A stretch of DNA of 64,000 nucleotides from a virus (IMGVR_UViG_2872147552_000001), one strand, 5' to 3'. Numbered from the stretch's first letter, positions 49,994 to 56,251 are shown. Numbers and translations are program-made. The notes: generated by a model from the sequence alone, not told the origin.

Positions 49994-50017
49994 GTAAGGC
50001 GTCCGTAGACGCCTTAC
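49994..50017 (-). terminator. rho-independent terminator of SSB-like gene
   Basis: Minus-strand hairpin gtaaggcgtctacggacgccttac followed by TTTTT. Confidence 0.6.
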
Positions 50018-50033
50018 TGGTCACGTAATGGGA

Positions 50034-51062
50034 TTACAGAGAGTCCAGCTCTCTCAGTAGGTCATCCAGACCTTCATCTTCCGTCGCAGATGCGGTTGCT
50101 ACAGATGTCGCTGCGACTGCTTCAGACTCTTTGACTGATACAGCAACGGCAGCGGAACTTGCCTCTGGTTTAAATTCAGTTTCAACGGCACGGAGGATTT
50201 CTTCATCAACCAGACTGGTTGGTTCAGAAGCCGGTGTGTGCGCGGTTGCTACAGCCGTCGCTCCTTCTGTATGACCAGTGACAGAGCCAAATCCAGGTAG
50301 TGCCGCAGCCGATGTTTTCGCGGTTGAGGAAATTGCTGGTGCAGATGCTGCGGCAGTTGGTGCAGCGATGCCAATCAGACGACCCATAGTGCGAACTGTC
50401 GACAGAAGACGAGTTTCATCAGCCTGATTTGCGTATGCGATCAGATCATGCTGGGTGTTCCAGAATTTATCTTCGATATCGCCTTTGTAGACTTTACGCT
50501 TAGGCGAGACGTCATATTTGGTATCGCGACCAGAGCCAGTACGTTTAATCAGGAATGCGTAGCCTTCCTCTTTGCTCAGTGGATTGCCGATATCATCAGC
50601 GATGTCTTCGGTGATTGCTTTGCAGATATCATCGAATACAGTAGACGGCAGCTCGATTAACTGGCATTTCTCAGCATCTGCGAAATCCTCACGAGCAGAA
50701 AGAATGCCGTTGACCAGGTAGCGAGGAGTGGCACGCATTTGACCGATGCGTTCTTCCATTGCTTTGTTACCCTTGTGACGAGCGCGACCTTCCATCACCA
50801 TTTCGCATAGCTGACAAGCGCGACCGTGAGTATGTTGCTCACAAATATAAGCGTTGGTTGCTTCTTTACCTTCCTCGTTCTGATACTTAACGTAGTGCAT
50901 ACCGAAAGTCTGGAAGAACTTACCGTTTGGGTCGTCTTTATTCGGGAAGATGCGGATATAGTTGACGCCGTCTTTTAAGCGAGTCAGATCAACGTTGTTG
51001 CCACGTTTGGCGGCAATGTCTTCACGAGTTTTGTTAAGCAAATCAAGTAATGTCTTAGACAT
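50034..51062 (-). CDS. single-stranded DNA-binding protein, gp32-like
   Basis: Cys/His cluster CEQHTHGRACQLC and acidic C-terminal tail EDEGLDDLLRELDSL. Confidence 0.5.
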   Translation of the reverse strand: MSKTLLDLLNKTREDIAAKRGNNVDLTRLKDGVNYIRIFPNKDDPNGKFFQTFGMHYVKYQNEEGKEATNAYICEQHTHGRACQLCEMVMEGRARHKGNKAMEERIGQMRATPRYLVNGILSAREDFADAEKCQLIELPSTVFDDICKAITEDIADDIGNPLSKEEGYAFLIKRTGSGRDTKYDVSPKRKVYKGDIEDKFWNTQHDLIAYANQADETRLLSTVRTMGRLIGIAAPTAAASAPAISSTAKTSAAALPGFGSVTGHTEGATAVATAHTPASEPTSLVDEEILRAVETEFKPEASSAAVAVSVKESEAVAATSVATASATEDEGLDDLLRELDSL

Positions 51063-51145
51063 GTGTTTCTCCTTGTTGTGATTTGGCCGATGGCGCTATG
51101 CGCGTTGGGCTTTCGTTCATTCGTGGCTCTTTCGAGCTGTTAAAT

Positions 51146-51174
51146 GATAGATCAGTACTTACTTATTATCTATC
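51146..51174 (-). promoter_or_regulatory. class B palindrome
   Basis: gatagatcagtacttacttattatctatc. Confidence 0.4.
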
Positions 51175-51179
51175 AAAAA

Positions 51180-51611
51180 TCAACGGGGAGTAATAAAGCG
51201 TTCAGAGCCTAATCGCTCTAATTCAACGATGGCCATCTTTGACGCCTGAACGATCATGTCTCGGCGATGCGAAAAGGCGGCGACAGCATGTTTGTATATG
51301 TCTGCGATGTGCCGTGCTTCATCCAACTTCTGCCGTTTAGACAGATACTGTGGGTTTGTTTTAACCTTAGCGTCCAGTACAGACTCGTTGAACTTAATGC
51401 CGTTCATACTCAAGTTCTTACGCTCTGTGTCGTATAGCTTTGCTTCAACAGCTTCAAGGTTAAGTTTTGCCTCTGCGACATCTCGATCTGCCTGCGCTAG
51501 TTTTGACCCATACTCCATTAAAAGCCGTGGCTGTTTACGCCATACTTCCTCAAGGTTGTCGCGGTCGAACTCCAGATCGGCCATGATTTTAGAAAAAATA
51601 TCAGTGTTCAC
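51180..51611 (-). CDS. hypothetical protein, possibly UvsY-like recombination mediator
   Basis: Size and helical pattern loosely resemble T4 UvsY; sits with SSB and RecA-like genes. Confidence 0.35.
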   Translation of the reverse strand: MNTDIFSKIMADLEFDRDNLEEVWRKQPRLLMEYGSKLAQADRDVAEAKLNLEAVEAKLYDTERKNLSMNGIKFNESVLDAKVKTNPQYLSKRQKLDEARHIADIYKHAVAAFSHRRDMIVQASKMAIVELERLGSERFITPR

Positions 51612-51819
51612 TCTAATAGGTTCCTACTTATAAAATCTGTATCAATTATATCAAACAGAGAACGGGTTTATGGCGTCATGTCAACTTTGTTCAGGGGAAA
51701 ATATTGAGATCACCGAAGATAATTAGTTGTCTTATTTTGGTAAGCTGTGCTGACCATCTTTAGGTCACATACATGAGATGGATGGGGGTGTGGCATGAAC
51801 GGATGAAATTCAGTCGCCG

Positions 51820-51848
51820 TTGACAGATGTCAACACTGTGAATAGAAT
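51820..51848 (+). promoter_or_regulatory. near-consensus sigma70 promoter
   Basis: TTGACA - 17 nt - TAGAAT, about 18 nt before the ATG at 51866. Confidence 0.6.
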
Positions 51849-51865
51849 ACTATTATCGGAGGCGA

Positions 51866-52090
51866 ATGAAGCAACATCCGAATAAGCATATTCAAGCAGC
51901 CATTGACTATGCATTAAGTAAAGGCTGGATCTGGGTAGCAGCTGGTGGTGCTGCACATTGTTTTTGCAGACTGCGATGCGGTAATCCAGAAGGTGAACAC
52001 AAAACTCACCAAATGAGCGTATGGTCGACTCCGGGTAATCCCGAAAACCATGCCAAACAGATCAAACGAATGGTTGATCGTTGTAAATGA
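51866..52090 (+). CDS. hypothetical small protein (74 aa)
   Basis: GGAGG RBS; followed by hairpin ggcggctattgccgcc + TTTT at 52098-52118. Confidence 0.45.
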   Translation: MKQHPNKHIQAAIDYALSKGWIWVAAGGAAHCFCRLRCGNPEGEHKTHQMSVWSTPGNPENHAKQIKRMVDRCK

Positions 52091-52150
52091 TTTCAAGGCG
52101 GCTATTGCCGCCTTTTGCAGAAACTGTCCAACTATCTTCAAAGGAATACT

Positions 52151-52714
52151 ATGGCGCTTTATAACTTCACTCTGACGCTCTCAGGCGTATCGTATGAGAC
52201 GGAAGGACTGGAAGACGCGCTGTACCAAAACGGCTGTGACGATGCGCTAATTTGCGCATATGGAAACTCCGTCTATGTAGAATTTGACCGCGAAGCACAA
52301 TCACTTGATGCAGCTATCGCATCTGCGGTCGACAATATTGAATCAGCCGGTATCGGTGCAATTGTTGAATCCGTCGACTCGGCTCTTGTGGGCTTAAGCG
52401 ATATCGCGGAACTGACAGACCTGTCTCGCCAGGCTGTGGCGTTGCTCAAAGACGGTAAGCGCGGAAGCGGCGACTTCCCTTGCCCTGTACAACGCATAAA
52501 AGGCCAGTCGCCTCTGTGGGATTGGGCTGATGTGGCTGAATGGCTCATGGATAACGGACGACTTAAAGAGGGCGATCAGATTGTCCAAAATGCCCGAACT
52601 TTGAGTAAATGGAATCTGGCGCTTCGAAACAGCGTCTCGAAAGATTTCAACGAAATAGAGCAAATTGCTGAGAAACTGATTAAACGCCGCAAGGATATTG
52701 CGAAATGCGCATAA
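52151..52714 (+). CDS. hypothetical protein (187 aa)
   Basis: AAGGAA RBS; ends at a bidirectional terminator. Confidence 0.45.
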   Translation: MALYNFTLTLSGVSYETEGLEDALYQNGCDDALICAYGNSVYVEFDREAQSLDAAIASAVDNIESAGIGAIVESVDSALVGLSDIAELTDLSRQAVALLKDGKRGSGDFPCPVQRIKGQSPLWDWADVAEWLMDNGRLKEGDQIVQNARTLSKWNLALRNSVSKDFNEIEQIAEKLIKRRKDIAKCA

Positions 52715-52717
52715 TGA

Positions 52718-52745
52718 AACCCGCCAGTTGGCGGGTTTTCTTTAT
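52718..52745. terminator. bidirectional terminator
   Basis: aaacccgccagttggcgggttttctttatt. Confidence 0.6.
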
Positions 52746-55700
52746 TACTTATTTATCGTCTCCGCGATATCAGCCAGAATGGCCTCCAGTCGCTCTCCTT
52801 CTTCCGGTCGGAAGTACAGGATATTCGGGTTAAATCCGTAGAAGACGGTTGCATCAAGCTCCGGGAAGTACTCCTTACGACCAATCAGATCTGATGGTTT
52901 ACTCTTATTGTTAAATAGTGCGGTTGAACGACTACCACACGTCAAAATGTAGGTTGGTCGTACAAGATTAATTTCTTCCCGCATAAAGTCTGTGAACTGG
53001 CCTATCTCGTCTTTGGTATAGTCTTTCTCTTTGTCCTTAACCTTCTTACAAACACCCGTGACATAAAGATCGCCCATGCGCAGATCTCCAACTGTCAGTA
53101 GTTTTGCCTTAAAGTCGTCGTATCCGTTCTCCATGAAGTAGCCGGTACGAGCGTCATTGCCGTTCGCATTGTCCAGAATGATCATGATTTTGGGTTTAAT
53201 ACCAATAGTCGGGCGTATCAACTCCTCACCCAAGCCCATTTCAGCCGCCATACGTGTCATGAGTACGTTGATTTCGGCAGAACGCTTAGGATTCATTTCG
53301 AACGGACGTGATGCTTTAACAGCGTCAATGATGAGATTGCCCATCAGCTCAGCCTGGTCGCGCAGTCGTTCAGGATCAGTTGCTGGCAGACTGCCTGGCT
53401 CAATTGACGCAAAAGCCCCTACTTTATGAAGCGACTCGCGTACACGACTGTTACATGCACGCTTCTCGACCGCTTCATCGAATTGTGCCACTGACTCGAA
53501 TTTGCCACCAACTTTCTCACGCGCACGCATAATTGCCTGACAACCATTTTCAGAACAGCCTTTCACAGCAGAGAATGGCGCATACAGTGCCTGACTGCCG
53601 TCTTCGAGTGTGCGGATCTCAATTCGGTTAGATGACACATTAACGTCTGGTGGCAATACGCGAATGCCATAGGTCAGCGCATCCTTCACCAGCCCCTGAT
53701 GCTTATCCTCGCCCAGAATGGTGAGCGCAGCTGCGAAGAACTCAGCAGGGTAGTGCGTCTTTAGCCACATAGACTGATAACTGATTAAAGAATAAGCAAC
53801 GGAGTGTGATTTGTTGAAGGCATATCCACCGAACTTCTCAAAGGCGTCCCATATTTCTTGGGCTTTTTCCTTACTGAGACCTTCTTGTTCAGAGACGATC
53901 TCCACGTAGTCTATGCCGTCACTAATAGCCTCGCTGTAGCTTCTACGCTTACCGTCTGAGCAATCCAGTTTTGCGTGTTTGTGAACCTCTACAGTACCTC
54001 CATTTTTGAGTGACAGTGTCACCCAGCCTGCTTGTGCTCGTTCTACAAAATCGCTGCCGATCGCTTTCATCTTATCCATGTTCTTTTTACCGATAGCGGA
54101 ACGCAGAGCGTCTGCTTCGGCCATAGAGAACCCGGCAAGTACTCGGGAACTTTGCATGATTTGTTCCTGATAGAGCAAAACACCATTAGTCTCCCGGGTG
54201 ACTTCCTCAAGACGCGGATGAATTGAATGTGGAGCCATAAAGCCTTTGGCTACAGAAACATAGTCATCCAACATGCCTGACTGAATTGGCCCCGGCCGGA
54301 AGAGTGCAGTCGTAGCAACAACCGTTTTAAAGCTCATTGGCTCAATTCCACCACCTAAATCTTTAAGCAGCTTGCGCATTGGGCCTGATTCAAGCTGGAA
54401 AACACCTTGAGTGTACCCAGCAGCAAAACCATCCAGCACCTTGCGATCTTCAAGAGAAATGGCATCAAGATTGATATCTTCACCTGTGTTCTCTTTTATG
54501 TAGCGTTTTGCACTATCGAGCAAATCGAGAGTTGCCAGACCAAGTACGTCCAGCTTAATTAGGCCCATAGCCTCGCAGTAACGCTTGTCAAATGCGATAC
54601 AACGCGCGTCACCACGGCGTTCAACCGGTGTACGTTCTGTCAGAGGAACACCTGCTACGATCATCCCTGCCGCATGTCTACCAAAGCCACGCATAAGGCT
54701 TTGTAACTTGCAGGCTGCATTGAATGCATCAGGATATTTTGTTGCGTATTTGTCGAGACTTGCCAGTTGTTCGCGCAGCTCTTCCAATGGAAGGCTATCA
54801 TCCTCGACGTTCTTCAGTTCTTTTGATACCGCCATATCTGCGGACTCCACACCATAAATACGAGCGGTGTCACGTAGTGCAGATGCCGCGCCCAGATAGG
54901 TGAAGTTCGGAATGCCTGCAACGTAATCTTCGCCGTAGCGTTCATTCAGATACTCGATCACCTCATGGCGACGTGCCTGGCTGAAGTCCAAGTCCGCATC
55001 CGGCAAGTCGAGACGCTCAGGGTTGATGAAACGCTCAAACAGAAGACCGTGACGGATTGGGTCGACGTTGGTTATGCCTATGCACCACGCCACCAGAGAA
55101 CCGGCAGAGGAACCACGACCAGGCCCAACGGGAATGCCAGTTTCACGACTATGATTCATCAGATCGCGTACCATCAGGAAGTAACCACAAAATCCCAGGC
55201 GAGTCAGCGTGTCCATTTCGTACTTTAGCCGCTCAACATAAACCCTGTTCTCAGAAGCAGGTGGTGTGTAGCCAAACTCTTTTGTGGTAAGACGTTTACG
55301 CAGCCCTGCAACAGCCAGCTTCATAAGCGTTGCAGGCTCGTCGTCTGCCATCTTTGGCAGTGCTGGCGGCAATTCATGCCAGCGCCATGTGCAGGCATCG
55401 ATAATGGTATCCTGCGTTGTTGAGGCCATTGCAGCTGTTACCGGCACATCCATGCGAACGGAGAAGGCTTTAAGCGCCTCAAGGAGATGGCGGCGACCAT
55501 TGACGGCGTTATCTCGCTGGTGGGGGATACGCAGACGATGCGGCTGGTCGATTTTGATGTTGTTCGTAACCATGTGCGCAATGTCTTTAATGTCTGCATC
55601 GTCGATCGATTCGTAATAAGCGGGATAGAACGCCACTGGCTCTATTTTCAATGCGCTGGCGACTTTCATCGCCCGGACGTTAATCTGGTCGTAGAATGGG

Positions 55701-56251
55701 GTAGGATGCGGATAAACCACACTATAGAAGTTGTCTTTTCCACCCGCTGTAATCAGTGTGCTTATGATTTTTGCAAAATCGTTGCGTTGGAACACGCTAC
55801 CGATGTCGGAAGTAAGCAGGATGATGTTGCCTTTGGCATATGTAGAAACCAACTGTTCGAGCGAGAGACGCGGTACAAAGTAGAACTGTTCTCGTGTGTT
55901 GGCCGCCGTCATTAGTTCGCAGATGTCGCGATATCCTTGCTCATTTTTAATTAGAGCGGTAAACGAGTAGTTACGTCCCCGCTCTAATGATTCCATACAT
56001 CTCATAGATTCTTTAGCAAGTTTAGCCCGGTGCTCGTATGTGGGATCATCAACAATGTTTAGTTTCACACCACAAATAACCGCCATGTCGTCACCAGCGG
56101 CACGTTGTAGTGGAATAACGCTCGCAATATTCATGCTATCTGCTGAAATTACAGCGGTGTAGCCAGCTTCTCTGGCAATCTTCACCGCGTTTTCTGCTTT
56201 TAGAGCCGACTCCCCAAGTGAGAAGTCAGTTCGAACCATCAGTGCCTTCAT
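52745..56251 (-). CDS. dnaE: DNA polymerase III alpha-type (DnaE family, PHP + polymerase core)
   Basis: 1168 aa; GYAFNKSHSVAYSLISYQSMWLKTHYP and other DnaE core motifs. Confidence 0.8.
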   Translation of the reverse strand: MKALMVRTDFSLGESALKAENAVKIAREAGYTAVISADSMNIASVIPLQRAAGDDMAVICGVKLNIVDDPTYEHRAKLAKESMRCMESLERGRNYSFTALIKNEQGYRDICELMTAANTREQFYFVPRLSLEQLVSTYAKGNIILLTSDIGSVFQRNDFAKIISTLITAGGKDNFYSVVYPHPTPFYDQINVRAMKVASALKIEPVAFYPAYYESIDDADIKDIAHMVTNNIKIDQPHRLRIPHQRDNAVNGRRHLLEALKAFSVRMDVPVTAAMASTTQDTIIDACTWRWHELPPALPKMADDEPATLMKLAVAGLRKRLTTKEFGYTPPASENRVYVERLKYEMDTLTRLGFCGYFLMVRDLMNHSRETGIPVGPGRGSSAGSLVAWCIGITNVDPIRHGLLFERFINPERLDLPDADLDFSQARRHEVIEYLNERYGEDYVAGIPNFTYLGAASALRDTARIYGVESADMAVSKELKNVEDDSLPLEELREQLASLDKYATKYPDAFNAACKLQSLMRGFGRHAAGMIVAGVPLTERTPVERRGDARCIAFDKRYCEAMGLIKLDVLGLATLDLLDSAKRYIKENTGEDINLDAISLEDRKVLDGFAAGYTQGVFQLESGPMRKLLKDLGGGIEPMSFKTVVATTALFRPGPIQSGMLDDYVSVAKGFMAPHSIHPRLEEVTRETNGVLLYQEQIMQSSRVLAGFSMAEADALRSAIGKKNMDKMKAIGSDFVERAQAGWVTLSLKNGGTVEVHKHAKLDCSDGKRRSYSEAISDGIDYVEIVSEQEGLSKEKAQEIWDAFEKFGGYAFNKSHSVAYSLISYQSMWLKTHYPAEFFAAALTILGEDKHQGLVKDALTYGIRVLPPDVNVSSNRIEIRTLEDGSQALYAPFSAVKGCSENGCQAIMRAREKVGGKFESVAQFDEAVEKRACNSRVRESLHKVGAFASIEPGSLPATDPERLRDQAELMGNLIIDAVKASRPFEMNPKRSAEINVLMTRMAAEMGLGEELIRPTIGIKPKIMIILDNANGNDARTGYFMENGYDDFKAKLLTVGDLRMGDLYVTGVCKKVKDKEKDYTKDEIGQFTDFMREEINLVRPTYILTCGSRSTALFNNKSKPSDLIGRKEYFPELDATVFYGFNPNILYFRPEEGERLEAILADIAETINK

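Follow-up and report, generated by a model that had tools for sequence, protein, structure and literature searches.

A putative toxin-antitoxin-like operon encoding a HicA-like fold protein on an SSU5/Cyrano-type phage-plasmid

The gene pair and its setting

The window, that is, the whole stretch of 64,000 nucleotides that was analysed here, is viral DNA (IMGVR_UViG_2872147552_000001). At the locus of interest it represents an SSU5/Cyrano-type phage-plasmid: bases 50000-54000 share 99.4% identity with Escherichia phage Cyrano, which is pLF82 of the AIEC strain LF82. Two plus-strand genes, coding for 74 and 187 aa, lie here amid minus-strand genes, and both the ORFs and their flanks match what the first-pass annotation of the sequence had described. 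Gene A (51866-52090) encodes the smaller protein, a putative toxin with a predicted HicA-like fold. Gene B (52151-52714) starts with an ATG preceded by AAGGA, and its product is a putative antitoxin and autorepressor. A longer version of gene B, a 199-aa ORF with a TTG start, was rejected as an upstream extension without support from homologues. The neighbors on the minus strand are a uvsY-like gene (51180-51611) and dnaE (52745-56251), the latter being a single ORF of 1168 aa in the window. In Cyrano, the A-B pair is the sole opposite-strand unit inside a long co-directional block of replication and recombination genes. The occurrence of this gene pair is far beyond chance, since both A and B have hundreds of homologues and the promoter/operator region is conserved across unrelated elements.

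The extent of the accessory cassette (51653-52740, plus strand) was derived from an alignment with Escherichia phage PhiR41_1, in which backbone similarity stops near 51652 and restarts at the dnaE stop region. In the cassette-free records of PhiR41_1 and CMS-2020a, the uvsY-like gene directly adjoins dnaE. The base composition of the cassette bears no mark of foreign origin, no integrase or attachment site was found beside it within the window, and an Rfam scan of 51400-52900 returned zero families at threshold.

The same cassette, at 100% identity, is present on 106-114 kb plasmids of E. coli. In a set of 5,426 complete genomes of this species, the flanking ssb/uvsY backbone was detected in 243, and 110 of these (~45%) carry the cassette, with all E. 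coli copies residing on plasmids. A further search of PLSDB yielded 312 plasmids with the cassette, including those of the Y. pestis pMT1 type. The comparison of related elements that had been proposed in the first-pass annotation thus shows that the presence of the cassette varies between otherwise collinear phage-plasmids (110/243 of the E. coli SSU5-like ones), and the gap between uvsY and dnaE is a variable cargo hotspot. The A-B pair is also encountered in other settings, namely in a P4-like island with a RelE/HTH pair as neighbor, in a P2-like prophage with Phd/YoeB alongside, in an integrase islet and, in many chromosomes, as a lone two-gene islet between housekeeping genes.

Several relatives display other content at or near this site. 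SSU5 contains an extra gene (SSU5_053) in the uvsY-dnaE gap, and Enterobacter phage-plasmids contain a plus-strand gene of 214 aa together with a DUF7740 gene there. Cyrano has an 817-bp insertion between B and dnaE that is missing from the window (site 52715-52745) and that contains an unannotated ORF for a CspA-like cold-shock protein (…MTGLVKWFNSDKGFGFISP…; L001 5948-6259). In three Enterobacter hormaechei phage-plasmids (L004-L006), a gene for a NUMOD4/HNH homing endonuclease splits dnaE, and an intein bearing a LAGLIDADG domain is present in recA.

Promoter, operator-like palindrome and hairpins

Gene A is preceded by a sigma-70 promoter on the plus strand (51820-51848), composed of the -35 hexamer TTGACA (51820-51825), a spacer of 17 nt and the -10 hexamer TAGAAT (51843-51848). 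Its near-consensus character, already pointed out in the first-pass annotation, is reflected in a match of 11/12. An operator-like palindrome, GTTGACA-GA-TGTCAAC (51819-51834), overlaps the -35 hexamer and forms a perfect 7-nt inverted repeat. In its usual form it reads GTTGAC-N4-GTCAAC. The palindrome over the -35 is retained even where the flanks cannot be aligned, and the constant distance between it and the -10 is kept in other elements. The general pattern GTnnAC-N4-GTnnAC was found 5' of gene A in 45 of the 52 loci whose B protein bears an HTH, and in none of the 22 loci with an HTH-less partner. This covariation of palindrome and HTH provides strong indirect evidence, from sequence comparison, for an autoregulation of the promoter by the HTH of B.

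The predicted transcript start lies near 51855, which would give gene A a leader of only ~11 nt. Its SD sequence GGAGG (51858-51862) is merely 3 nt away from the ATG. This arrangement is kept in several relatives. The short leader and the close GGAGG may damp the translation of gene A. They recall the hicAB operon of E. coli, where the short-leader P2 transcript serves for the translation of hicB and not of hicA.

Other upstream elements occur in some of the loci. Seven loci (L004, L007, L015, L017, L019, L021 and L022) share the element GCTGGCCGTAGACAGC at ~54 nt 5' of the operator. It includes an operator-like GTAGAC half-site and could serve as an auxiliary operator. This second operator is confined to a subset of the mobile copies and is absent from the window, where the equivalent place (51751-51767) is taken by a weak TGACC-N7-GGTCA inverted repeat. 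Another upstream palindrome, AGTTGTCA-N2-TGACAACT, was seen in the cyanobacterial loci L068, L069 and L073 and in L086 from Marinospirillum.

Between the two genes, a GC-rich hairpin with an 8-bp stem, a TATT loop and a short T run is located on the plus strand (52095-52116) and represents a putative partial terminator. The stem-loop AAGGCGGC-TATT-GCCGCCTT (52095-52114) has a folding energy of -16.7 kcal/mol (z = -3.4). The T run comprises 4 nt, 2 of which are within the stem, and the hairpin was not called in a terminator scan. Gene A had initially been credited with a hairpin-TTTT terminator of its own. The hairpin is real, but its function as a separate terminator did not hold up. Genes A and B are better read as one operon with the hairpin as an internal attenuator, because the T run is short, the terminator scan did not call the hairpin and no promoter-like site for gene B was found. 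A hairpin of different sequence occupies the equivalent position in SSU5, in Y. pestis pMT1 and in many Enterobacterales loci. Some of these copies after gene A are devoid of a T run, and the hairpin is missing in loci where A and B abut or overlap.

A second hairpin (52716-52739) lies between the convergent genes B and dnaE, 1 nt past the stop codon of B and 5 nt past that of dnaE on the other strand. It has a 10-bp stem (GAAACCCGCC/GGCGGGTTTT) and a folding energy of -17.3 kcal/mol (z = -3.9). The first-pass annotation had described it as a bidirectional terminator shared with dnaE; it was called as terminator on the plus strand only, and the U tract on the minus strand is weak. In the Cyrano lysogen (LF82), the near-identical counterparts of genes A and B are expressed 30x and 14x, respectively, over the prophage background (PMC9928086), which is consistent with an active promoter followed by partial termination.

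The two proteins and their pairing across genomes

Protein A belongs to a family with 740 representatives at 50% identity (E ≤ 1e-3). According to the structural model, it is a single-domain protein with a HicA-like (dsRBD-like) a-b-b-b-a fold, and its length falls within the range of 50-100 aa. Pfam and NCBIfam contain no match to the protein: PF07927 (HicA_toxin) and the NCBIfam HicA model are absent even at E ≤ 1-10. A transitive link to HicA was sought by comparing 98 diverse relatives of protein A with Pfam, and zero PF07927 matches were obtained. Sequence and profile searches of the PDB with protein A returned no HicA, and what the Pfam, NCBIfam and PDB searches with A and B did return was noise only (RuBisCO_small, CagE, lectins). 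In PHROG, protein A is a member of family 5923, where its function is listed as unknown. The hhalign comparison of protein A with an E. coli-type HicA profile, a weak test as this profile is narrow (≥66% identity), resulted in a 25-column, non-collinear match with a probability of 72%. A collinear alignment with the same narrow profile pairs H31 with H23 of HicA and is insignificant (E = 0.41), and the forced global and alternative alignments are insignificant as well. At the level of sequence, homology of protein A to HicA is therefore not demonstrable.

The family nevertheless contains a set of near-invariant residues. Among the 98 diverse members, His4 is conserved in 97, Trp21 in 96, His31 in 92, Cys38 in 96 and Cys73 in 96. 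Position 48 is Cys or His in 94 members, Thr55 and Pro56 are found in 94 and 97 members, respectively, and position 75 is His in 48. H31 is located immediately before strand b2, with G27/G28 upstream of it. In HicA toxins, the essential His is positioned at the start of b2 and has a Gly before it (Ec His23, Bps Gly22/His24, Yp His28; PMC11594946). The Cys/His set of protein A (C38, C/H48 and C73) looks like a structural metal site, a feature that is absent from HicA.

Two further readings of protein A were encountered. An HNH-like protein was considered and rejected, as there is no conserved Asn and no HNH structures were among the matches. Weak matches to the RuBisCO small subunit (PF00101) were obtained for 13 of the 98 family members, with a best E value of 0.0023. 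A Shewanella member of the family in NCBI (P0039) is named 'ribulose bisphosphate carboxylase small subunit', which is almost certainly a mis-annotation.

Protein B is predicted to consist of three parts, all encoded on the plus strand: a ferredoxin-like N-domain with b-a-b-b-a-b topology (residues 1-76, nt 52151-52378), an AlpA-like HTH domain (residues ~80-135, nt 52388-52555) and two long C-terminal helices (residues 143-186, nt 52577-52708). The overall pLDDT of the model is 83.5, with values of merely 60-65 in the HTH region. The HTH is AlpA-like, with extra helices after it, and is not of the Xre-type HTH or RHH kind. PHROG places protein B in family 2620 with the label 'excisionase and transcriptional regulator', and RefSeq names it an HTH regulator. 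A stand-alone 79-aa ORF that matches the HTH part of B only was seen in Mannheimia indoligenes (L046 8499-8738), as a second copy ~1.8 kb downstream of an A-B pair.

The model of protein B lacks the partial RNase H fold of HicB (b-b-b-a-b-a), which indicates that B is not HicB. The first-pass annotation had named HicAB among the families to be checked, and with this different N-domain fold the assignment falls, although the Cyrano genome is annotated in that sense (CYRAN_51 as HicA and CYRAN_50 as putative HicB). The case for a classical HicAB family member, with a HicA toxin and a HicB antitoxin, can further draw on the HicA fold of protein A and on a gene order and palindromic operator as in hicAB. 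However, two tests of membership gave a negative outcome, A being without a family HMM match and B having a non-HicB fold, and we consider such an assignment quite unlikely. Without the HicB fold in B, the mode of neutralization is not transferable from the solved HicAB complexes.

The pairing of A and B was examined in 74 loci, found by means of a closer protein A alignment in a set with one genome per GTDB species. They stem from Gammaproteobacteria, Planctomycetota, Verrucomicrobiota, Cyanobacteria, Bacteroidota, Nitrospinota and Acidobacteria. In 71 of them, the HMM of the B N-domain matches the same-strand ORF directly downstream of A. In two further loci, inspection revealed a divergent downstream ORF of 81-102 aa with the same secondary-structure pattern as the B N-domain. 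Gene A is thus followed by a gene with the N-domain in 73/74 loci, and in the one remaining locus A and B are both degraded. The architecture of the partner differs between groups. In distant phyla (~20 loci) it consists of the N-domain alone (84-118 aa), Pasteurellaceae combine the N-domain with the HTH, and Enterobacterales add the C-terminal helices to both. A natural fusion of A and B exists in a Xenococcaceae cyanobacterium MAG as one ORF of 265 aa (L073 5995-6792). As the N-domain stands alone in distant phyla and the HTH is optional, these comparisons suggest that it is the N-domain that is conserved as partner of A, the DNA-binding domain being an add-on.

The two genes do not decay alike. 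Gene A is broken by nonsense mutation, frameshift or deletion next to an intact B in 9 loci, and zero loci with an intact A and a broken B were found among those examined. Given that the length of B is 2.5 times that of A, the chance of such a one-sided outcome is (0.285)^9 or ~1e-5, which is a rough estimate of our own. The loci were ascertained through A-like sequence, and this bias runs against seeing A-only decay. The one-sided pattern is unlikely under neutral decay and would be expected if A were harmful without B. On the E. coli plasmid pTB212 (L013 3331-4000), a B-like gene with 69% identity is present at the same site and the terminal hairpin is kept. The promoter, gene A and the ~20 first codons of B have been lost, and the locus looks like a decayed cassette.

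The decay pattern also bears on the polarity of the pair. In most type II systems the antitoxin is the first and higher-expressed gene, and the mRNA of A exceeds that of B in Cyrano; the N-domain of B might hence be the toxic part, with the small protein A as its antitoxin. Against this, the 9 loci with a disrupted A and an intact B, and pTB212 with a B gene and no A, would be lethal were B toxic. The DNA-binding domain of B is moreover typical of antitoxins, and the fold of A is one known from a toxin. A reversed polarity is accordingly a highly improbable explanation.

The labels given to protein B by PHROG and RefSeq, its AlpA-like HTH and the persistence of B-only remnants could also point to a non-toxic regulatory pair, with B as a transcription factor of the AlpA/excisionase type that would control functions of the phage-plasmid, and with A in the role of a small cofactor or an anti-repressor. 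This is difficult to reconcile with the ~20 loci of distant phyla, where A is accompanied by the N-domain alone and no DNA-binding domain is present, and with the decay of A next to an intact B, the reverse of which was never seen. In addition, the recognizable operator sits in the cassette's own promoter. The cassette also moves as a unit among unrelated elements and chromosomal sites, so that there is no fixed regulatory target. A purely regulatory role is consequently deemed unlikely.

Proposed function and comparison with known systems

The evidence is best accounted for by a self-contained, horizontally mobile and autoregulated type II toxin-antitoxin-like operon that combines a HicA-fold toxin with a new antitoxin, a reading to which we assign a probability of about 0.65. 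The original description as a toxin-antitoxin-like or regulatory cassette gains from the HicA-like fold, the co-occurrence of HTH and operator, the obligate pairing, the A-only decay and the variable presence. Matches to ordinary phage structural or replication accessory families, which would have spoken for a different role, did not appear in the Pfam, NCBIfam and PHROG searches.

In the proposed mechanism, the cassette would be carried by the phage-plasmid as an accessory gene set ('moron'). The product of gene A would be a growth-arresting and probably RNA-cleaving toxin, acting via His31, a near-invariant residue where b2 begins, and stabilized by the Cys/His cluster (C38, C/H48, C73). The ferredoxin-like N-domain of B would serve as the conserved module that binds and neutralizes A. 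The AlpA-like HTH of B, probably as a dimer, would bind GTTGAC-N4-GTCAAC over the -35, thereby repressing the GTTGACAGATGTCAAC promoter and with it the operon. The GC-rich intercistronic hairpin would pass only part of the transcripts on to B. Such partial termination would set the A-over-B mRNA ratio, similar to what is known from hicA(T)B on IncI2 plasmids. The advantage to the element would most likely lie in the stabilization or competition of the low-copy plasmid prophage and/or in an abortive-infection defense against other phages, and both roles are plausible.

Defense may even be the function under selection. PADLOC lists a computational phage defense candidate, PDC-M06, for which neither a fold nor a mechanism or phenotype has been described (Payne et al., bioRxiv 10.1101/2024.01.29.577857). 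Protein A matches the PADLOC model PDLC04383 (PDC-M06A) with an E value of 1.2e-19 and protein B matches PDLC04388 (PDC-M06B) with 1.5e-32. The definition of PDC-M06 goes back to 497 cassettes located within BREX, DISARM or type I RM loci. If it is defense that is selected, abortive infection would follow upon a disturbed A:B balance, which is compatible with a toxin-antitoxin mechanism. The presence of the pair in P2-like and P4-like accessory regions, its expression from the lysogen and the proposed involvement of HicA domains in defense, shown in one unrelated fusion protein, all fit. On the other hand, the PDC systems are computational candidates that the authors themselves list as untested, and only a few of 135 flanking ORFs match PADLOC models, most neighbors being housekeeping and not defense genes. 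The single experimentally validated HicA-domain defense system that was found, moreover, is a 472-aa fusion unrelated to the A-B pair; this DefensePredictor 'HicA' system was considered as a relative of the pair and rejected for that reason. Altogether, defense as the selected function is a possible but tentative explanation.

A more specific proposal, equally tentative, is that the pair represents a new toxin-antitoxin or defense family and not a divergent HicAB. Its effector would be a metal-stapled HicA-fold protein with an invariant residue set of its own (H4, K7, H31 and H62), the staple consisting of C38, C/H48, C73 and often H75. The effector would be kept in check by a ferredoxin-like domain not previously described in an antitoxin role, and the family would span at least 8 bacterial phyla and serve in lysogen protection or in competition between phage-plasmids. 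What is known of the pair at present consists of PDC-M06 in PADLOC and a loose HicAB annotation, which are computational catalogue entries only.

SSU5-type phage-plasmids are frequently found in Enterobacteriaceae of clinical and farm origin, and pMT1 of Y. pestis contains the A-B pair as well. The stabilizers or anti-competitor weapons of these elements are poorly known. The labels currently in use, 'hypothetical protein + HTH regulator' (RefSeq), 'HicA/HicB' (Cyrano) and 'PDC-M06' (PADLOC), refer to one large family. Once unified, it would be characterized by a predicted HicA-fold effector, a different putative neutralizing domain, a defined putative operator and a putative internal attenuator. 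If the proposed reading is true, a new antitoxin fold is added to the HicA world, and the excess-toxin wiring by internal termination that is known from IncI2 plasmids arose independently in a second family. A role in lysogen protection, if true, would validate PDC-M06.

Among the known systems, PDC-M06 is similar in that both genes match its models, with gene order and co-orientation preserved. The cassette differs in its location on a phage-plasmid and not within a BREX, DISARM or RM locus. The main text of the papers found by literature search does not mention PDC-M06. The wing and helix signature FPxP...W..W..V..WL of AlpA/excisionase-type HTH regulators (Phage_AlpA/HTH_17; PDB 8c3t) recurs in the middle domain of protein B. 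In contrast to these regulators, the HTH of B is one of three domains, is optional and is fused to a putative partner-binding domain.

The resemblance to HicAB of E. coli K-12 (PDB 6HPB; Gerdes class 3) concerns the organization of the operon. A small a-b-b-b-a protein of 50-100 aa is encoded first, and a palindromic operator (a putative one in the cassette) is situated within the operon's own promoter. In hicAB, too, the small gene comes first and the DNA-binding partner second (PMC10865869), class 3 having hicA followed by a hicB with C-terminal HTH. The small partners without DNA-binding domain and the fused variant are paralleled by Gerdes classes 1 and 11. The proteins themselves differ. 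Protein A is without a sequence-profile link to PF07927 and contains a conserved N-terminal HPNK motif as well as the C38-C/H48-C73(-H75) cluster. The N-domain of its partner is predicted to be ferredoxin-like, whereas HicB has a partial RNase H fold in its place, and for the DNA-binding domain B has an AlpA-like one instead of the Xre-type HTH or RHH of HicB.

A close parallel to the proposed wiring is offered by hicA(T)B of IncI2 mcr-1 plasmids, in which a hairpin with a 3-U tract precedes the RBS of hicB (Lin et al., NAR 2025, PMC11878559). Owing to this hairpin, the abundance of hicA mRNA is raised ~10-fold and the plasmid becomes a stronger competitor (PMC11878559). The proteins are unrelated by sequence to those of the cassette, where termination is putative. 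Apart from these differences, a GC-rich hairpin whose U tract is very short separates the toxin gene from the antitoxin gene in both operons (putative ones in the cassette) and lies just before the RBS of the latter, and both operons are borne on a low-copy plasmid. In both, the mRNA of the toxin exceeds that of the antitoxin (10:1 in hicA(T)B and ~2:1, or 30 versus 14, for A and B in Cyrano), and both have a sister subtype, hicA(O)B in the case of the IncI2 plasmids, in which the genes abut or overlap and the hairpin is missing.
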